Below, in pieces: positions 3,536-59,272 of a stretch of 64,000 bases of DNA. Under the pieces are notes generated by a model. That model was not told where the DNA came from. It made no database searches and worked only from the letters and a program-made list of their open reading frames with translations. The stretch is taken from assembly GCA_037142735.1 (NCBI GenBank), contig JBAXAB010000001.1, positions 36,915-100,914 of the forward strand, in the 5' to 3' direction. Positions within the stretch are counted from its first letter, which is position 1. Each line of letters starts with the position of its first letter. The DNA comes from a bacterium (GTDB lineage: Bacteria; Patescibacteriota; Minisyncoccia; Phycocordibacterales; CAIZLB01). Both the position numbers and the translations under genes were made by a program.

Positions 3536-3619
3536 ACTATGGAAAATAAGGGTTTTTTGCCAATTTTAATATAATACTAAAAAATACTTGACATATATTT
3601 AATATGTGCTAGGGTTTTA

Positions 3620-4215
3620 TCAGCGCGAAGGTTCTTTGAACAAAACATCTACGTATCTTGATGGCCGCGAGGTCAATCAAAGGTAAAGATGTCGAACCCT
3701 CTCCGCTCTGGTTACTCGTCCGACGTGTCGTAAACCAGTGTATGCGAAGAACAAACAGCATGTGAGTACCAAGTCAAAGGCACGCTGTTTCGCTAGGCAC
3801 AAAGATAAGTCCGGCGCACAAATGGATGCTTGTCCAAAGCTCCTACTCTATGGGTCCACAGGCGCCGTAAAGCGACATCGAATCGTCGGGAGGGGCAACG
3901 TGCTACCACCCGCTATCGAACTCGCAGCCGCCACCATCGCCGTCGCACAATGCGCGGCCGAGCATCAGAGATGGCCCAAGAAAATCTCAAGGACGAAAAC
4001 GAGCCGGGCAACCTTGAGAATGGACAGCGCTGCGGCGCAACAGGTTTCGATCAATCCCAGGTCGAAAGTGCAGGCAGTCTCGGCAGACACCGAAGCTGAA
4101 CCCGAAGTTCTTACCCGCACACCGAAGGGTACCCCGCTGTTGCGCGCCCCACGCGTGCACAGCGGGGGCCCGACGGCCTCCCACACACTGATCCCACCCC
4201 GGGGTCTTTTTTTGT
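3620..4215 (+). other. GC-rich island 1: ~600-nt segment ending in an intrinsic terminator. Candidate structured ncRNA or small-ORF cassette. Diverged paralog of the element at 18459-18860.
   Basis: Sharp GC rise versus neighbours. Extended hairpins, e.g. CCCCGCUGU..ACAGCGGGG. Conserved blocks shared with island 2 (TCGAACTC..CGCCACCA, ATGG..GACGAAAAC, GGCCCG..CCTCCCACAC). Only low-complexity overlapping ORFs. Confidence 0.4.
4193..4214 (+). terminator. Rho-independent terminator (CCCCGGGG hairpin plus a T7 run).
   Basis: acCCCGGGGtcttttttt lies immediately upstream of the leuS promoter region. Confidence 0.8.
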
Positions 4216-15952: not shown

Positions 15953-17347
15953 GTGGAATTAGTTGTAATGAGGCCTTTTTGGCTGTACTATAATACTAAT
16001 ATGAAAGTTGCGAATAAGCGAGAACCTTTTCTCCTTTTGATCGGGGATATTGCATGTCTTACTTTATCTCTTTGGTTAATGCTGTACTTGCGTGCATTTA
16101 ATATTCCTTCACTTGCCGTTTTTACAGCCCACCTGGCACCATTCGGTATTCTTTTTCTGGCTTCATTGGTTGTGTACTATATCTCTGGTTTATACGAAAA
16201 ACATAACAGTATTCTGCGCTCTCGCCTGGCATCAGTAATTATAAAGGCTCAGATCGCAAACAGTTTAGTTGCAATTGCTTTCTTTTACTTTGTTCCATAT
16301 TTTGGCATCACACCGAAAACAAACCTTTTCTTGTACTTACTTATTTCCATAATTATCATCACATTATGGCGACTCATTTTCTATCCATTCTTTTTGCCTG
16401 GCAAAAAACGTCGTGCAGTTATTATTGGATCTGGTACAGAAATGGAAGATATTATTCGTGAAGTAAACAATGATCCACATTATGACTTCCAATTGTCACG
16501 AATTATTGATCTAACTGAGACAGACAAGGCCACTATTCCGGATATTATTAAACAAGAAGTAATGGATAATGATGTTTCGATGATAGTGATCGACCTCGAT
16601 CACGCTAAAATCAAAGACGTATCACCAAAATTATTTGATTTAATTTTTATGAATGTAGATTTTGTCCCAATGTATAGCGTATACGAACACGTGTTCTACC
16701 GTATTCCATATTCAGCTTTAAAGCATGATTGGTTTATTGAAAATATCTCTTCTCGAGCTAAAGGCAGCTATTCGTTTGGTAAGCGCGTAATCGACATTAC
16801 ACTGGCGGGAATTGCCTTCATAATTTCTCTAATATTTTATCCACTAATTTGGATCGCCATCAAGATTCAAGACGGGGGGCCACTTTTCGTCTATCAAGAA
16901 AGACTCGGGCAGGGTAATAAGAAATTTATGATTAGAAAGTTTAGAAGTATGCGCGCAGCCAAGCATGATGATGGGGCTTGGGTGGGAAAAGACGATATGA
17001 GAATAACAACACTTGGTCGCATTATGCGAAAAACCAGCATTGATGAACTTCCTCAATTATGGAGCGTTCTGAAAGGAGACTTGTCCCTCATAGGCCCACG
17101 TCCTGACTTGTATGATCGAGGAATAGAACTGTCTCAACAAATTCCTTACTACAATATAAGAAACCTTTTAAAACCAGGACTGTCTGGTTGGGCACAGGTT
17201 AGTCAGGCACTACCACCGCAATCATTAGAAGAGACTAAGCTCCGCCTTGCATATGACATTTATTATGTAAAAAATAAATCATTGTTCATGGACTTTGTCA
17301 TTGTGCTTCGCACCATTCGATCCCTCTTTTTGCGTTTAAAGCAATAA
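15953..17347 (+). CDS. Polyprenyl glycosylphosphotransferase (WbaP/CpsE-type sugar transferase).
   Basis: Multi-TM N-terminus. C-terminal bacterial sugar-transferase domain (KRVIDITLAGIAFII..GPLFVYQERLG..MIRKFRSM..GDLSLIGPRP). True start may be the MKVANK ATG at 16001. Confidence 0.88.
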   Translation: MELVVMRPFWLYYNTNMKVANKREPFLLLIGDIACLTLSLWLMLYLRAFNIPSLAVFTAHLAPFGILFLASLVVYYISGLYEKHNSILRSRLASVIIKAQIANSLVAIAFFYFVPYFGITPKTNLFLYLLISIIIITLWRLIFYPFFLPGKKRRAVIIGSGTEMEDIIREVNNDPHYDFQLSRIIDLTETDKATIPDIIKQEVMDNDVSMIVIDLDHAKIKDVSPKLFDLIFMNVDFVPMYSVYEHVFYRIPYSALKHDWFIENISSRAKGSYSFGKRVIDITLAGIAFIISLIFYPLIWIAIKIQDGGPLFVYQERLGQGNKKFMIRKFRSMRAAKHDDGAWVGKDDMRITTLGRIMRKTSIDELPQLWSVLKGDLSLIGPRPDLYDRGIELSQQIPYYNIRNLLKPGLSGWAQVSQALPPQSLEETKLRLAYDIYYVKNKSLFMDFVIVLRTIRSLFLRLKQ

Positions 17348-17384
17348 CCATTTATAATCTGTACACAAATTTAACCAATAACAC

Positions 17385-18458
17385 ATGAAGCTATTTATTA
17401 CCGGAGGAGCAGGATACGTCGGGGCAATGTTGGCAGATCAGTTCAGCGGGCGGGCAGATGTTGAAAAGATTTTATTGGTAGACAAAGAAGCAGAGCCACA
17501 GTTACTAAAGAACAATCCCAATTATTCAAAAATTCAATTTATTCAAAGCAATCTTGGAGATACAAACTGGCAGGATCAGGTTCGTGCATTTACACCTGAT
17601 GTCGTCATTCACACTGCGTGGCAAATTCGTGAAATGTTTGGCAAAAAAGAATTACAGTGGAAATGGAATGTGACAGGCTCTGATAATGTCTTCGATGTCG
17701 CCTTTGAATTAACTTCTGTGAAGAAACTGATTTATTTCTCTACTGTTTCAAGTTACGGAGCATTTTCAGACAACCAACTTGATCACTTTATAAAAGAAGA
17801 AGAGCCTTTTCGTGAAAACACTTATTTATACGGTGTTGAAAAAAAGGAAGTTGAGGTGCATCTCCATAAAAAATATGAAGAGGCCAAGAAAGCTGGAACA
17901 CATGTGCCCCAGATCTTCATTGTACGACCCGCAGCAATCACTGGAACACGTGGACGCTACATGCGCGTACGATTTGGTCTCCAGGCGGCCCTTTCTGGTC
18001 AATTAAAGGGTAATTTTGTGTACAGAATGATCTCATTCATGGTTTCTTTTGTGCCGGCAACTAAAAAATGGTGTCGACAATTTATTCATGAAGATGATGT
18101 GTGTAATATTGTGGAATTATTTACTTTTACTGAACTGAAGGGAGACTACGAGGTTTTTAACATCTGTCCACCTGGCCAAATCGTGACTGCTACTGATATG
18201 GCCAAAGCCGTGGGTAAAAAACCAATCTTTTTGCCTCCATGGTTAATTCGTATTGTTTTTGCCTTTATGTGGAATGTATTCCGGGGAAGAGTGCCGACTT
18301 CAAAGGGTGGCTGGAAATTCTATTCATATCCAGTTGCAGTTGATGGTTCAAAACTGACGAAACAATATGGTTATCAATACAAATACAATTCTTTAGATGC
18401 GTTTACTAAAAGGGAGGGCAGATATTCTAAATATACAGAATCTGAGACTAAGTTATAA
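17385..18458 (+). CDS. NAD-dependent epimerase/dehydratase (SDR family).
   Basis: [20 protein letters not shown] Rossmann motif and the YxxxK region. Confidence 0.85.
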
Positions 18459-18502
18459 AAAAATCCCGCGGACAAGTCGATGGGGGTCGGCTCATCCGCG
18501 GG
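18455..18502 (-). terminator. Intrinsic terminator for a minus-strand transcript.
   Basis: Minus strand reads CCCGCGGA..UCCGCGGG (8-bp stem) followed by AUUUUUUUAU. Confidence 0.7.
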
Positions 18503-18860
18503 AAGCGTGTGGAGGGGGAATTGTTTACGGGCCGCCTGCTACAGGTGACCTACGCTGACGATTTCTGCGGAACCTCCGGACGTATTTTCGTTTTTCTCGT
18601 CCATGGTCAGTGGGCTTGAAGGGACTCGCCCTTCAGGTTGGTTGGGCCGGGCGTGACCTTGGCTGGTGGGCGGAGAGTTCCGACTGGGGTGTCCCAGTTT
18701 TTCTGGAGCTGTTTCCTGTAGTGATCGTGGGATTGAGGCTTTGCAGGCGCCTCGGGTGTTGCTGTCATGGTTTCGTTGGTGGTTGGTTGCTTCGTGGCTA
18801 CGTGAACTTCTGGCGCCGACTATCGGCGTCAAAAAATCCATCGCAGGGTTCAAAAAATAA
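18459..18860 (-). other. GC-rich island 2: minus-strand paralog of island 1 with A/C-rich leader, two tiny coupled ORFs and a terminator. Candidate ncRNA or small-ORF cassette.
   Basis: Shares ordered blocks with island 1 (TCGGAACTCTCCGCCCACCA, ATGGACGAGAAAAACGAAAA, GGCCCG..CCTCCACAC). Leader ..aaccaaccaccaacgaaaccATG. Inverted repeat TCCATCGCA..TGCGATGGA at the 5' end. Confidence 0.4.
18607..18768 (-). CDS. Candidate small ORF (53 aa, MTATPEAPAKPQSHDHYRKQ...) after the A/C-rich leader of island 2.
   Basis: ATG right after the ACCACCAA leader. Its stop lies 2 nt before the ATG of a second 21-aa ORF (18539-18604). No homology recognised; may be non-coding. Confidence 0.25.
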   Translation of the reverse strand: MTATPEAPAKPQSHDHYRKQLQKNWDTPVGTLRPPAKVTPGPTNLKGESLQAH

Positions 18861-18996
18861 GTGACTTACTTTCTAAACTTTGCGATGGATACACCTTTGA
18901 TGAACTTATTCTGTGGAGCAGTATAATACCTTTTGTTAAAAAAGTCAATATTTTGAATCTTTCTGCCACGATTGCTTTATGTTAATATCAAACGCA

Positions 18997-20844
18997 ATGA
19001 AATCATCCGAAATTAGGAAGCGTTTTATAGACTTCTTCAAAGAGCAGGGGCACGCAGAAATCCCATCCGCCTCTCTTGTTCCTGAAAATGACCCGTCGGT
19101 TTTATTTAATACTGCTGGAATGCAGCCCCTTGTTCCATATTTATTAGGTGAAAAACACCCGCTTGGTGTTAGATTGGTAGATTTTCAAAAATGTGTAAGA
19201 ACAGTAGACATTGATGACATCGGGGACAACACTCATGCCACTTTTTTTGAAATGATGGGGAATTGGTCTTTGGGAGATTATTTTAAAAAGGAAGCAATTG
19301 AATGGAGTTACACGTTATTAACAGACAAAGAGAAAGGTTTTGGTCTTGATCCGCAGAGACTATATGTGACATGTTTTGAAGGCGATGAAAATGCCCCAAG
19401 AGACGAAGAGAGCGCAAGTATTTGGAAATCAATTTTTGAAAAAAACAAGGTAACTGGAAACAGAATCTATTTTTTAAATGCAAAAAGTAACTGGTGGAGC
19501 CCGGGAGAGAACGGCCCGTGCGGCCCTGATACAGAAATGTTTTATGACGTTACAGGCACATTAAACCAAGGATTAACACATGAAGAATATCTAAAGGCAG
19601 ATGAGAAACAACAAGTGGTAGAGATCTGGAACGATGTTTTCATGGAATATGAAAAGAGGGATGGAAAAGTGGTAGGGAAATTGGCTAATAAAAATGTAGA
19701 TACTGGTTCAGGATTTGAACGTGTCACTATGGTTCTTCAAGGTAAAGATAATATCTTTGACACAGATATTTTTAGCCCGATTATCCAAAAAATTGAAGAA
19801 TTTGTGGGAGAAGTAAGTTTGGAAGTAGGCGAGCTCAAAAAACTAAAGCGTATTATTGCTGATCACGTTCGAACATCAGTGATGTTAATTTCTGACGGTG
19901 TTTTGCCTTCAAATACGGATCAAGGATATATATTGAGGCGTCTTATCAGACGAGCGGTTCGATGTGCTGACAGATTGGGTCTAAAAGCAGGTTCATTGTT
20001 TTGGATTGCGGAGACAGTGGTTGATCAATACGAAGAGGTATATAGAAATGTAAAGCAACAACGCGAAACCATCAAGGTAGCAATCGATAAAGAAGAACAG
20101 AAATTTAGAAATACATTACATGATGGACTCAAACTGCTCGACAAAATCTTAAATAAGTCTTCTGATCAAACAATCACAGGTGAAACTCTTTTTAAGATGT
20201 ACACCACGTATGGTTTTCCGCTTGAAAATTCATTTGATGAAATTAATCATATGCGCATTTCAAAAGGTCTAGGAATCTTAGATTCCGTCACTCGTCAAAA
20301 ATTAGTAGAAGAATTTAATTCTTTTATTCATCAACACCAAGACGTGTCAAAAGCCGGCTCTGAACAAAAATTCAAAGGAGGCCTTGGTGGTCACGGAGAG
20401 GTGGAAACAAGGTATCACACTGCTACACACTTACTCCACCAGGCCCTGAGAGAAGTACTTGGTGATCATGTCTCTCAAAAAGGAAGCAACATCACGGCCG
20501 AAAGAATGCGTTTTGACTTTACTCATCCGACCAAAATGACTGAAGCTGAAAAATCTAAAGTTGAAAAAATCGTTAATGACAAAATCCAAGCAAGTCTTCC
20601 TGTGAACGTGGTTGAATTAGATCGTGAAGCAGCCGAAAAAACTGGGGCGCTTCACTTTTTTGGTGACAAATATGGAGACAAAGTGACGGTGTATTACATT
20701 GGTGACTCAATCGAGGCTGCATTTTCAAAAGAATTTTGTGGAGGACCGCATGTGAAAAATACAAAGGAATTAGGAACCTTCAAAATTGCAAAGGAAGAGG
20801 CAGTCGCGTCAGGTGTTCGTCGTATCAAAGCAGTCCTAGAATAA
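18997..20844 (+). CDS. alaS: Alanine--tRNA ligase, short form lacking the C-terminal C-Ala/DHHA1 domain.
   Basis: Class II catalytic core (FEMMGNWSLGDYFK), editing-domain HxxxH (HTATHLLHQALREVLGDHVSQKGS) and CGGPHV motif. Protein ends ~616 aa. Start taken at MKSSEIRK. Confidence 0.92.
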   Translation: MKSSEIRKRFIDFFKEQGHAEIPSASLVPENDPSVLFNTAGMQPLVPYLLGEKHPLGVRLVDFQKCVRTVDIDDIGDNTHATFFEMMGNWSLGDYFKKEAIEWSYTLLTDKEKGFGLDPQRLYVTCFEGDENAPRDEESASIWKSIFEKNKVTGNRIYFLNAKSNWWSPGENGPCGPDTEMFYDVTGTLNQGLTHEEYLKADEKQQVVEIWNDVFMEYEKRDGKVVGKLANKNVDTGSGFERVTMVLQGKDNIFDTDIFSPIIQKIEEFVGEVSLEVGELKKLKRIIADHVRTSVMLISDGVLPSNTDQGYILRRLIRRAVRCADRLGLKAGSLFWIAETVVDQYEEVYRNVKQQRETIKVAIDKEEQKFRNTLHDGLKLLDKILNKSSDQTITGETLFKMYTTYGFPLENSFDEINHMRISKGLGILDSVTRQKLVEEFNSFIHQHQDVSKAGSEQKFKGGLGGHGEVETRYHTATHLLHQALREVLGDHVSQKGSNITAERMRFDFTHPTKMTEAEKSKVEKIVNDKIQASLPVNVVELDREAAEKTGALHFFGDKYGDKVTVYYIGDSIEAAFSKEFCGGPHVKNTKELGTFKIAKEEAVASGVRRIKAVLE

Positions 20845-38817: not shown

Positions 38818-39405
38818 CTAGGCCTCGACCCCGATCAGTCCGCTCAACATGCTACGGACCAGGTTTGTCGAGGCCATCACAGGGATTCGGGCCAGTTCGA
38901 ATTGCAGGGCGAAGACAGGATCGTCGAGCACAACGCGCGCGGCGCTGAAAGGCAGATCCACTCGGCCGTTGTAGAGAACCAAGCCTTCAGCCTGAACCGA
39001 GCGCAACTTGAGAACCTCCGAGACTTCCGTTCCGGACAGATCCAGATGAGCCTTGATTTTGACCTGTTCGATGGACAACCTCTTCCATCTGTTCCTGTAC
39101 ATGTCGATGTACCTGACTTCGGCACAATCAGACATGTGAAATGCGGAACCTTCACAGCCGGAGACATGAAGGCCGCCCAGGAGATTGCACTTTTCGAAGC
39201 CGATCCTGCAGTCTGGCTCATTTTCGATGTGAAGCCATCCGTTGAAGGTGGTGTTCCGGAAACAGAGGGAATTGATAGGATTCTTCTTTCCGCCGTTGAT
39301 CGAGAAGTCATCAGTGACGATGAACGACTCGTGAATACCGAGCCCGTGTGGGCTGGTGAGTTTTGCCAGATACTCTGCTGGCTTTATGAGTGTAGGTGAT
39401 GACAT
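38818..39405 (-). CDS. Pentapeptide-repeat protein (195 aa) in GC-rich island 5.
   Basis: Tandem A(D/N)LxX-like pentads (CNLLG GLHVS GCEGS AFHMS DCAEV ..LDLSG TEVSE..). GGAGG SD 9 nt upstream of the ATG. Confidence 0.75.
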   Translation of the reverse strand: MSSPTLIKPAEYLAKLTSPHGLGIHESFIVTDDFSINGGKKNPINSLCFRNTTFNGWLHIENEPDCRIGFEKCNLLGGLHVSGCEGSAFHMSDCAEVRYIDMYRNRWKRLSIEQVKIKAHLDLSGTEVSEVLKLRSVQAEGLVLYNGRVDLPFSAARVVLDDPVFALQFELARIPVMASTNLVRSMLSGLIGVEA

Positions 39406-57746: not shown

Positions 57747-57870
57747 GAAGGTTAGTTTAGCAAAAATATGCTTAATTTAAAAGGTTTTGAATTAACACGT
57801 ATATTGACAAATATATATAGATATGGTATCATTAGAAAGTAGACAGATCTTTAAAAGCAGGTCATTGGTA

Positions 57871-57917
57871 GGTTACAGACAACTTCTTGTTTCTTAAGTA
57901 AGTAGTTGTCTGTAACC
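57871..57917 (+). promoter_or_regulatory. Perfect 14-bp inverted repeat (GGTTACAGACAACT-N19-AGTTGTCTGTAACC) just upstream of the island 7 leader. Operator-like and overlaps a weak promoter.
   Basis: Seen directly. Followed by taaGGTTGCGGaaaacaacacaccaccaataccc ATG. Confidence 0.5.
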
Positions 57918-57951: not shown

Positions 57952-58428
57952 ATGAAAACACCCCTCAACTTCATCGAAACCCACGCTTACACGCTCGCCA
58001 TCACGATCGGAGGAAGCGTCATCGCCTGCATCCTCATCGGATGCGTGATGCTCCGGCAAGCCTATATCAAGGCGCAAAGTGCAAAGCGCGCCCGCAAGGA
58101 CGAGCTGGACACAGAAACCGCCGTCTGCGCGGAGCTGCGATACCCAATGCTTCGCGACTCTTACCGCAAAGCGGTCAGCACCAGGCGACGGTTCGACACC
58201 AAATCCCCGATCGCCGACGAGATGTACAACCATCTCAGCGACATCCGGTTCGCGTTCTTCGAAGGAGTCGCTCGCCTCATCGGGCGAGGGGCACCACTCT
58301 ACGTAGACAAATTCCCTCGCGGAGTGTGTCACGTGATCTGGAACACGCTCTTCGGTTGGACCATCCTCCTCACCGGCTGGCTTCACCTCGTTGAAGTCGC
58401 CCGGGCGAAGGAGGTCCAAGCGAGCTGA
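57952..58428 (+). CDS. Membrane-anchored protein (158 aa) in GC-rich island 7.
   Basis: ATG after the A/C-rich leader aaaacaacacaccaccaataccc. TM LAITIGGSVIACILIGCVML, Arg-rich cytoplasmic region, second hydrophobic segment near the C-terminus. Confidence 0.6.
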   Translation: MKTPLNFIETHAYTLAITIGGSVIACILIGCVMLRQAYIKAQSAKRARKDELDTETAVCAELRYPMLRDSYRKAVSTRRRFDTKSPIADEMYNHLSDIRFAFFEGVARLIGRGAPLYVDKFPRGVCHVIWNTLFGWTILLTGWLHLVEVARAKEVQAS

Positions 58429-58530: not shown

Positions 58531-58572
58531 TTTAAAAACGAACACCCGGCCCTTCGTGAGAAATGCCGGGTG
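58531..58572 (-). terminator. Intrinsic terminator of the pilin gene.
   Basis: Minus strand CACCCGGC..GCCGGGUG followed by UUCGUUUUUAAAAUG. Confidence 0.6.
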
Positions 58573-58617
58573 GTGTGAGTTTGATGGACGCTTGTGAAGC
58601 TGCCGGTCGCCGCCGAG

Positions 58618-59031
58618 TTAGTTGTAGGGCGACCAGAAGCTTGCGGCTGCGGGAGTGTCCTTCGTGACGTCGGCGAACGCTTCGACGGTTGCAGACGAAA
58701 CCTTTGCATGTCGGGTTCCGACGGGCAAGGTGATCGCATGACCGAGGATGTCCACGCCGCCGCTCGAGTAGAGACGCGTGCCGGGTTTGAGGTAGGCCTG
58801 GACGTCCATCCACTTGGGGATGACGCCAGGTTCCTTCGCCGCGAGGGCGTATTGGTCGGCAGCGATGTCAACGAGCCGCAGCTCTTCGATCGTCATGTTC
58901 GCCTGCGAACGCTTGCGGCCACGCAGCCAGTTCGGGACGGCGATGGCGGCGAGCAGGGCGATGATCGCGACGACGATCATGATTTCAACGAGCGTAAAGC
59001 CCGTGCGTTTGGTGTTCAGTTTACGGAGCAT
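58618..59031 (-). CDS. Type IV pilin / pseudopilin (138 aa) in GC-rich island 8.
   Basis: Class III signal and N-terminal helix MLRKLNTKRTGFTLVEIMIVVAIIALLAAIAVPNW (G|FTLVE). ATG directly after caacgcaacatcaaaccaacaccaaacaacacacc. The upstream extension to 59163 is unlikely to be coding. Confidence 0.8.
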   Translation of the reverse strand: MLRKLNTKRTGFTLVEIMIVVAIIALLAAIAVPNWLRGRKRSQANMTIEELRLVDIAADQYALAAKEPGVIPKWMDVQAYLKPGTRLYSSGGVDILGHAITLPVGTRHAKVSSATVEAFADVTKDTPAAASFWSPYN

Positions 59032-59094
59032 GGTGTGTTGTTTGGTGTTGGTTTGATGTTGCGTTGCAGAACGCAGCCAATGCCGTGAGGCGCT

Positions 59095-59142
59095 GGTTGC
59101 GGAATAAAGACAATATAAAAATACAGGCTTTATTCCGCAACC
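59095..59142 (-). promoter_or_regulatory. Perfect 15-bp inverted repeat (GGTTGCGGAATAAAG-N18-CTTTATTCCGCAACC) embedding a TTGCGG-N17-TATATT promoter-like sequence upstream of the pilin leader.
   Basis: Seen directly. Shares the GGTTGCGG word with the sequence after the island 7 palindrome. Confidence 0.5.
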
Positions 59143-59272
59143 ATTCACATATGTGTCCATCAATATTTAAGGAACAATTTATTAAAAATTATCACAGATG
59201 TGGGTAAAGTCAAGTGTGTTGTAACCAGTACACAGGGTAAAAAATAAAGGATCAAGAAAACAATAACAAAAA

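Follow-up and report, generated by a model that had tools for sequence, protein, structure and literature searches.

What is encoded in the GC-rich interval between a sugar epimerase gene and alaS in a 64,000-nucleotide stretch of the patescibacterial contig JBAXAB010000001.1 (positions 36,915 to 100,914 of the forward strand; hereafter the window)? Genomes of the candidate phyla radiation (CPR, Patescibacteria) are tiny, and much of the biology of these bacteria, including host attachment and dependence, is unexplained; to our knowledge, their small proteins are almost wholly unannotated. A first-pass annotation had described a leader, two tiny coupled open reading frames (ORFs) and a terminator on the minus strand of this interval. 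All of the features it described are present in the sequence, and its interpretation of the locus is partly supported. On the evidence below, the interval probably holds an unannotated small-protein locus, with a transcript of its own and mosaic alleles, that belongs to a Paceibacterota-like (CPR) lineage. The full unit (18457-18948, minus strand; hereafter the island) is larger than the 18459-18860 first assigned to it, which leaves out the promoter and the 5′ arm of hairpin 1, the most conserved element. Its GC content is 58-61%, compared to 39.8% across the window, and its sense strand is C/A-rich and U-poor (A.28, C.35, G.23, U.13).

The 5′ end of the island consists of a promoter and two adjacent stem-loops, all read on the minus strand. 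The sigma-70-type promoter (-35 TTGACT at 18948-18943, 17-nt spacer, -10 TATACT at 18925-18920) agrees with 10/12 consensus positions, and transcription is predicted to start near 18913. A single-stranded segment of ~23 nt (CAGRAYAAGTWCA..AAAGG, 18891-18913), unpaired in the consensus fold of the alignments, precedes hairpin 1 (18836-18890), an interrupted stem of 23 bp with the base AUCCAUCGCA/UGCGAUGGAU, an A/U-rich upper stem and a U-run after it. The 9-bp inverted repeat recorded in the first pass (TCCATCGCA/TGCGATGGA, 18889-18881 and 18845-18837) is real, with a gap of 35 nt and not ~40, and is merely the base of this longer hairpin, which had been missed along with its U-run. In hairpin 2 (18807-18835), the U-run at 18835-18831 pairs with the purine run CAGAAG at 18812-18807 around an inner CGCCGA-UAG-UCGGCG stem; this inner stem had also been seen (18830-18812), in the letters of the plus strand, while the minus-strand RNA reads GACGCCGA-UAG-UCGGCGCC.

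Downstream of these stem-loops, the coding part of the island reads as first described. A C/A-rich, G/U-poor leader without a Shine-Dalgarno site (18769-18806, ...GCAACCAACCACCAACGAAACC) abuts the ATG at 18768-18766, which opens ORF1, a frame of 53 codons (MTATPEAPAKPQSHDHYRKQLQKNWDTPVGTLRPPAKVTPGPTNLKGESLQAH; 18607-18768 with its TGA at 18609-18607) for a basic, proline-rich and mostly disordered peptide that includes the stretches NWDTPVGTLRPPAK, VTPGPTNLK and GESLQAH. AlphaFold2 (AF2) run on ORF1 alone returned a mean confidence (pLDDT) of 64.5, with one helix (residues 14-26) and the remainder coil. After a CC spacer, a second ATG at 18604-18602 completes the stop-start junction TGA-CC-ATG (18602-18609), the proposed site of termination-reinitiation, and opens ORF2, an acidic frame of 21 codons (MDEKNENTSGGSAEIVSVGHL) ending in TAG at 18541-18539 (18539-18604 overall). 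An untranslated spacer (18503-18538) leads to the intrinsic terminator (CCCGCGGA...UCCGCGGG, 18457-18502), in which CCCGCGGA (18502-18495) pairs with TCCGCGGG (18472-18465) over 8 bp plus inner pairs around a 22-nt loop, followed by A and seven U (T7 at 18463-18457 in the DNA); the size of this loop is the sole reason that the terminator escaped a simple scan. The first pass had called the whole unit antisense to both flanking genes: it does lie on the opposite strand, though between the two genes, and its U-tract alone overlaps the stop codon of the epimerase gene (TAA, plus strand 18456-18458). A two-ORF plan of this kind, counted as an ORF of >=40 codons, a stop, <=4 nt and an ATG-ORF of >=15 codons, arose in 99 of 20000 composition-preserving shuffles (0.5%).

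The same locus was found in nine other distinct sequences, a result contrary to the absence of copies elsewhere that the first pass had named as grounds for abandoning its proposal. One relative (L086) was reached via proteins that cluster with the epimerase at 90% identity; two Joint Genome Institute (JGI) metagenome loci (L091 and L092) were retrieved with a 20-mer from hairpin 1, and their epimerase cluster in turn gave L093-L107. All ten distinct sequences lie between the same two genes and share the promoter, hairpin 1, a second hairpin, a C/A-rich leader without a Shine-Dalgarno site, the ATG and a terminator. Comparison with L086, whose flanks have ~77% nucleotide identity and whose AlaS has 88% amino-acid identity to the window, showed the promoter and hairpin 1 almost invariant. 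The L091 clade is far more distant, with alaS at 74% amino-acid identity and synonymous divergence (dS) >2, i.e., saturated, against a dS of 0.27 within the clade. Despite this saturation, promoter identity between the window and L091 is 0.76, and the motif TTGACTTTTT...GTATTA(C/T)TAT is kept in all orthologues; identity over hairpin 1 reaches 0.91, compared to 0.59 over the cargo (the part between leader and terminator). None of the 23 pairs of hairpin 1 is broken in 8 sequences, and L094 contributes 4 compensatory double changes. The fold of hairpin 2 is the same in every orthologue around an inner sequence that occurs in six versions; where the U-run of L086 has a C for a U, this base pairs with G. 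Hairpin 1 is thus conserved in sequence and structure, hairpin 2 in structure only. An AACCAAC-type motif is retained in all leaders, and a GC-rich hairpin with a T-run stands at the terminator position in every orthologue, in two sequence types that recur and reassort among the alleles of the L091 clade.

This 5′ module belongs to the island rather than to alaS. Searched with a covariance model of the module, the window shows one copy (105 bits; runner-up 16) and 80 more distant alaS loci show no match, and in L094, where an extra gene lies between the island and alaS, the module remains beside the island; together, these two observations make it part of this transcription unit. An alaS regulatory element was accordingly ruled out, as hairpin 1 travels with the island and is absent upstream of alaS in the distant relatives.

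In contrast to these conserved ends, the cargo is exchangeable and falls into three types. Type A, the two-ORF layout, is found in six distinct alleles from two clades (the window, L091, L092/L099, L093, L105 and L098). Its ORF1 has 53-56 aa and always ends AH-stop; the junction reads ...GCC CAC TRA, then 1, 2 or 4 nt, then ATG in all alleles; and its ORF2 has 21-32 aa (24-32 in the orthologues), starting M(A)D(Q/E)(N/S) and ending V(E/S)(F/V)G(D/H/N)L-stop. Type B (L096/L097, L107 and a diverged version in L094) has one ORF of 67-71 aa that looks like a fusion, with an N-terminus like that of ORF1 (MSQPVSHQ vs MQKPAHQ) and a C-terminus like that of ORF2 (FPPVHVEGG vs LPPVEVGNL). Type C, seen in L086 only, is rearranged, with a 76-aa ORF and a partly ameliorated composition (GC 0.51); the L094 cargo is likewise partly ameliorated (GC 0.48). 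Since close strains carry type B or type C, the two-ORF layout represents one allele type and not a fixed design: the independent unit of leader, two ORFs and terminator proposed in the first pass holds as a plan for six alleles and gives way to single-ORF and rearranged cargos in close relatives.

Allele exchange is most evident between near-identical strains. L096 (type B) and L098/L099 (type A) have an identical epimerase protein and flanks that agree at 98.9-99.3% over 2274 nt, while their cargos, at an identity of 0.53, are as similar as unrelated DNA. By blastn, the cargos of L091 and L096 match over two stretches only, 60 nt at the start (96.7%) and 43 nt at the end (100%), the latter match being limited to pairs that share a terminator type. 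Because leader, cargo and terminator types occur in several combinations, the locus is a recombining mosaic, and recombination through the conserved flanks accounts for near-identical strains that carry type A, B or C.

We then asked whether the frames bear signs of being translated. With eight further GC-rich window genes as the training set of a codon model, ORF1 scores 0.27 bits per codon (true frames, 0.28 ± 0.18), above all 459 off-frame windows, and ORF2 scores 0.22, a value reached by only 0.4% of off-frame 20-codon windows; the best-scoring frame changes at the TGA between them. Start, stop and frame are conserved across the six type-A alleles, and the indels inside the ORFs of five of these (3, 3 and 24 nt) are all multiples of three. 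In five alleles of the L091 clade, the ratio of nonsynonymous to synonymous polymorphism (pN/pS) of ORF2 is 0.27 in its own frame (9/1500 column shuffles), compared to ~0.9-2.1, not significant, in the off-frames. For type B, pN/pS is 0.54 (0/1500 shuffles), with variable sites in excess at third codon positions (28/21/41) and no significance in the off-frames. Between clades, ORF1-by-ORF1 is the sole frame pairing that is consistently significant (z of 3.4, 6.5 and 3.3 for the window against L091, L092 and L093, at 26-29% identity), and the JGI pipeline called ORF1 as a gene in L091 and L092 (P0142-P0145). Coding signatures reach significance in ORF2 and type B; in ORF1 they are weak. The comparison of frame conservation with that of the RNA blocks, proposed in the first pass, comes out divided: ORF2 is constrained, ORF1 barely so, and hairpin 1 is conserved most strongly of all.

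Several observations weigh against a small-protein locus. The pN/pS of ORF1 is 0.70 and not significant (453/1500 shuffles; variable sites 12/10/12), the +1 frame over the ORF1 region of the L091 clade has a nominally lower value (0.43, 31/1500), and the periodicity of GC content across the three codon positions of ORF1 is weak (0.63/0.52/0.65). With only 12% T on the sense strand, long open frames come cheaply. L086, the closest relative of the window, no longer has the two-ORF layout; Prodigal-type callers and the NCBI prokaryotic annotation pipeline (PGAP) called no gene in the window copy (the NCBI accession numbers of the epimerase and alaS proteins are consecutive); searches against 1.84 billion representative proteins and with all six frames gave no protein homologue; and hairpin 1 and the U-run behind it resemble an intrinsic terminator ~80 nt from the start that could halt most transcripts before the ORFs.

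Part of this evidence would also suit a structured or composition-dependent non-coding RNA that spans the whole ~460-nt island, its open frames being a by-product of few T. The island folds more stably than its shuffles (z-score -5.9), its U-poor composition is kept between alleles with diverged sequences, the weak periodicity and constraint of ORF1 and the uncalled window copy point the same way, and a GAGGCG...CGCCUC hairpin early in ORF1 is common to the window and the L091 clade. However, hairpins 1 and 2 and the terminator account for most of the excess fold stability; Rfam searched at E<=10 yields no family match (over 18400-18980, only a 15-bit chance match); and cargos without nucleotide similarity in 99%-identical strains are hard to square with one structure. 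The in-frame indels and the frame-specific purifying selection in ORF2 and type B likewise argue against such an RNA, and we hold it to be very unlikely.

A second RNA-based explanation takes its strength from the 5′ module. Here, the conserved part would be a small RNA gene of ~80 nt (promoter, 5′ "seed" and hairpin 1 with a U-run terminator) and the cargo a separate element, silent or transcribed by read-through only. No other part of the locus approaches the conservation of the promoter, 5′ segment and hairpin 1; the base of hairpin 1 has the classic terminator shape (five G-C pairs, then U5-6), and no promoter of the cargo's own was found. Yet the U-run pairs into hairpin 2 in every orthologue, such that its conservation can be explained without termination, by pairing with the conserved downstream purine run; and the cargo keeps its leader, ATG, ORFs and terminator over saturated divergence, coding signatures included. 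The 5′ segment has no complementary site within the window, for which reason a base-pairing small RNA was rejected, and Rfam offers no match. Nor did inspection of the alignments reveal a conserved antiterminator, as the sole candidate pairing (GGAUAA/UUAUCC) is not kept in the window, L093 and L096. A small RNA gene with an unrelated cargo therefore strikes us as improbable, although a terminating hairpin 1 would be compatible with the small-protein locus as an attenuator. Hairpin 1 could be an attenuating terminator, a stabilizing 5′ structure or a protein-binding site, and the conserved 5′ module could play an RNA-level role alongside the small proteins.

Searches for relatives of the island outside this locus placed it in no known family. 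Rfam gave no gathering-threshold match over the whole window and none at E<=1 over 17000-20500, and ARAGORN found no tRNA or tmRNA, which leaves no known structured RNA (RNase P RNA, tmRNA, 6S, T-box or riboswitch) as a candidate. A fragment of a known protein gene was likewise dismissed, as word-index and phmmer queries with ORF1 and a concatenated query of the six frames produced no real match; the sole phmmer match (P0121) is spurious, a repeat protein to which low-complexity sequence aligned four times. Pfam, PHROGs and PADLOC returned nothing for any allele. Against the window, blastn of the island yielded self-matches only, with no peptide paralogues, and nothing was found in viral contigs, phages or plasmids, which excludes a repeated or mobile element family there.

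Could the island simply be a decaying, non-functional remnant of DNA from a GC-rich donor, as other GC-rich islands of the window may be? The window does carry a GC-rich pilin-like cassette of a type abundant in GC-rich genomes (one labelled Chthoniobacteraceae), with donor-style leader and terminator kept; the plan of the island (5′ hairpin, A/C-rich leader, ATG) matches that of the donor units; and the cargos of L086 and L094 are partly ameliorated. No donor homologue was detected for ORF1 or in any frame, while the pilin-like gene, as a positive control for this search, gave thousands of matches at 58-65% identity; recent horizontal acquisition was set aside on these grounds. Moreover, the architecture is kept in clades with saturated alaS, a divergence that the ORFs, terminator and GC content of neutral foreign DNA would not have survived, and selection signatures are present. 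A remnant is, in our view, more improbable still than a wholly non-coding island.

Returning to the small-protein locus, we propose the following course of expression, read from sequence features. The near-consensus sigma-70 promoter would start a minus-strand RNA of ~460 nt, the 5′ untranslated region (UTR) of which would open with the two adjacent stem-loops, hairpin 2 absorbing the U-run after hairpin 1. The unstructured C/A-rich leader, lacking a Shine-Dalgarno site, would then bring ribosomes to the ORF1 AUG; ORF1, encoding the largely disordered basic peptide, would be translated to its UGA, and ribosomes would reinitiate 2 nt further on at the acidic ORF2. Transcription would end with the GC-rich hairpin and U7, right at the stop codon of the epimerase gene. 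Alleles of the cargo are modular, with leader, coding part and terminator reassorting by recombination through the conserved flanks. For the coupling of the two ORFs, the conserved stop-start adjacency together with a variable spacer and relative frame favours reinitiation over programmed frameshifting, a candidate that was rejected: the frame of ORF2 is +2 in the window and +1 in the L091 clade, over spacers of 1, 2 or 4 nt. In L091 (2202-2384, plus strand), L092 (285-103, minus strand), L093, L098 and L099, an internal ATG (ATGCATCC), absent from the window copy, opens a 53-62-aa ORF in the ORF2 frame that overlaps the 3′ half of ORF1 and contains ORF2. The +1 frame with the pN/pS of 0.43 is this one.

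The individual parts of the locus (unannotated small ORFs, translational coupling, 5′-UTR hairpins and allelic cassettes) are of known kinds. The closest likeness in layout is to operons of small ORFs with termination-reinitiation coupling, which share the two tandem ORFs of <60 codons on one short transcript, a stop-start distance of 1-4 nt, an own promoter and intrinsic terminator, and the tendency to be routinely missed by annotation pipelines. Here, in contrast, an unstructured C/A-rich leader replaces the Shine-Dalgarno site, the peptides have no homologues and near-identical strains differ by complete replacement of the coding part. The conserved hairpin and U-run between promoter and first ORF recall promoter-proximal attenuators and riboswitch leaders, although the island has no Rfam match, conserved antiterminator or recognizable ligand- or tRNA-binding domain, and its U-run also belongs to a second conserved stem. 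Class IIb two-peptide bacteriocins likewise have two adjacent, tiny, co-transcribed and strain-variable ORFs; this assignment was discarded upon inspection of the peptides and neighbours, as the island peptides are hydrophilic (one basic, one acidic), with no GG-type leader or GxxxG helix, and the neighbours are the epimerase gene and alaS, with no adjoining immunity or ABC-transporter gene and no Pfam, PHROG or PADLOC match. A type I toxin-antitoxin system was similarly discarded: both peptides are hydrophilic, AF2 predicts one short helix, antisense ORFs are not conserved and no plus-strand promoter was found inside the island.

In its pattern of variation, the locus shares most with idiomorph-type loci (comC and agrD pherotypes, bacteriocin/immunity sets): conserved flanks, unrelated central alleles in ~99%-identical strains, mosaic reassortment of leader, coding part and terminator, and small peptides. 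Unlike these, it has no adjacent receptor, processing, export or immunity gene and no signal peptide or double-glycine leader. The presence, beside a polysaccharide cluster, of ancient alleles that are unrelated in otherwise near-identical strains recalls, by analogy, loci under diversifying or balancing selection, and the polymorphism pattern suggests a strain-specific interaction function, fast-evolving or kept polymorphic. A bolder extension would have the locus serve CPR episymbionts as a peptide system under balanced polymorphism ("idiomorph"), in which a 5′-UTR riboregulator (hairpins 1 and 2) gates interchangeable peptide alleles, be they a basic and acidic pair or a fused chain; we offer this as a speculation that we doubt. 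The peptides would then mediate strain-specific kin, host or phage recognition, or form a miniature toxin-antidote pair, and the GC-rich, U-poor module would be kept in an AT-rich genome by RNA-level selection or frequent recombination. Under the small-protein locus in general, candidate reasons for the persistence of such a cargo are selection on the RNA, recombination-associated GC bias and repeated acquisition.

The combination of CPR orphan peptides, a two-hairpin module, a C/A-rich leader, mosaic exchange and a GC-rich cargo has not been described in the literature searched, and a full-text search yielded nothing on such loci in CPR bacteria. The locus offers a concrete, testable example of a conserved expression platform that would drive peptide alleles swapped between strains with 99%-identical flanks. 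If made, the peptides would be candidate strain-specific interaction factors, and, should the idiomorph extension prove true, they would define a new class of variable small-peptide cassette in Patescibacteria. Wider questions touched by the locus are the start of translation in a lineage with seemingly leaderless core genes, the origin of the class of GC-rich cassettes in this genome and what annotation pipelines miss: the window copy went uncalled, and a spurious antisense ORF was annotated in relatives. The latter, 128 aa long with a TTG start, runs antisense to the small ORFs and was called in L098 (2297-2683, plus strand) and in L100-L102. We rejected it as a real gene, as it is interrupted or otherwise started in L093 and L099 and has a negative codon-model score; it is probably a false call from GC-rich, stop-poor sequence.

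The island is one of at least nine GC-rich genes in the window (51-61% GC, GC content at third codon positions (GC3) up to 0.78). Every one of them has an AT-rich, promoter-like region upstream and a terminator of its own, and in most a C/A-rich leader abuts the ATG. The leader type of the island heads at least six others, most of them annotated in public records. Seven are monocistronic, with ATGs at 57952(+), 44919(+), 42262(-), 39940(-), 39405(-), 31925(-) and 29044(-), 51-59% GC and a GC3 of 0.59-0.75; all are hypothetical or unnamed, without a Pfam match, and the gene at 39405 is an exception in having a GGAGG site in place of the C/A-rich leader. Core genes, at 35-41% GC, have no Shine-Dalgarno site and often carry (TGA)TATAAT 6-8 nt before the ATG (e.g., 20889, 22010, 42439 and 44212 on the plus strand; 53847, 52212 and 63584 on the minus strand), a placement that suggests widespread leaderless messenger RNAs in this lineage.

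The pilin-like cassette mentioned above (58540-59145, minus strand; ORF 59031-58618, 61% GC) encodes a prepilin-like protein. Its homologues, at 58-65% identity, number in the thousands and come from contigs of 62-65% GC (one homologue is labelled Chthoniobacteraceae), on which the genes are arrayed in tandem with sigma-54-type promoters. Of the donor-style features, the window copy retains the A/C-rich leader, the first codons ATGCTCCGTAAA and the CACCCGGC..GCCGGGTG terminator; its sigma-54-like box (GGCATTGGCTGC) is decayed and 2 nt too short. Transfer of an entire transcription unit into the CPR genome is probable, with a GC-rich, Verrucomicrobiota-like bacterium as the apparent donor, and this donor may hint at the host of the CPR bacterium. 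On the evidence of this cassette, GC-rich cassettes with this leader form a class in the genome with at least one horizontal acquisition. Pilin-like units of two GC-rich Verrucomicrobiota-like genomes (L083 and L085) resemble the island in their 5′ GC hairpin, A/C-rich leader without a Shine-Dalgarno site (...ACC ATG), small ORF and final GC hairpin with U-run; they differ in having sigma-54-type promoters and a recognizable prepilin, as opposed to the sigma-70 promoter, AT-rich hairpin 1 and orphan peptides of the island. Perfect hairpins with 15-bp stems lie between promoter and leader in the pilin-like cassette (59097-59144, minus strand) and in that of a 158-aa gene (57865-57913, plus strand), with the motif GGTTGCGGAA beside one of them and inside the other; both are placed like hairpin 1 and have no sequence similarity to it. 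A further GC-rich (56-66%) intergenic unit, "island 1" (3590-4215, plus strand), has a TTGACA-type promoter and a terminator with T-run and no Rfam match; its ATG-ORFs score ~0 in the codon model, and one starts MAQENLKDENE, reminiscent of ORF2-type N-termini.

The genomic setting of the island is that of a Paceibacterota-like bacterium. The window lies within a 128-kb contig that was independently assembled from several sources, with a 100%-identical copy in another run. The convergent neighbour (17385-18458, plus strand) is an NAD-dependent sugar epimerase gene, the last of a glycosyltransferase cluster, and the divergent neighbour is a short alaS, the product of which has its best relatives in metagenome-assembled genomes of Patescibacteria/Paceibacterota (identity <=69%). 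In one sub-lineage, a 131-aa gene without a Pfam match lies between the island promoter and alaS (L094 3084-3479, L095 2227-2622), and the closest relatives in the genome collection (L001-L003) have no epimerase gene upstream of alaS; these two arrangements place the island at a synteny breakpoint beside the polysaccharide gene cluster. The longest alaS ORF starts at 18979 as compared to 18997 in the public annotation (615 aa, MKSSEIRKRF), and a conserved TTAATAT just 5′ of 18997 would suit a leaderless alaS messenger beginning there.

Four loci retrieved along the way were set aside: L089 and L090 are chance 20-mer matches inside coding DNA, and L087 and L088 are irrelevant rRNA operons that were retrieved via a 48-aa member of the AlaS cluster. 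This 48-aa protein, the representative of the 90% cluster, is a spurious ORF in the 5′ end of 23S rRNA and thus a clustering artefact, and the 16S-23S spacer of L087 and L088 contains an unusual run of tRNA-like genes.

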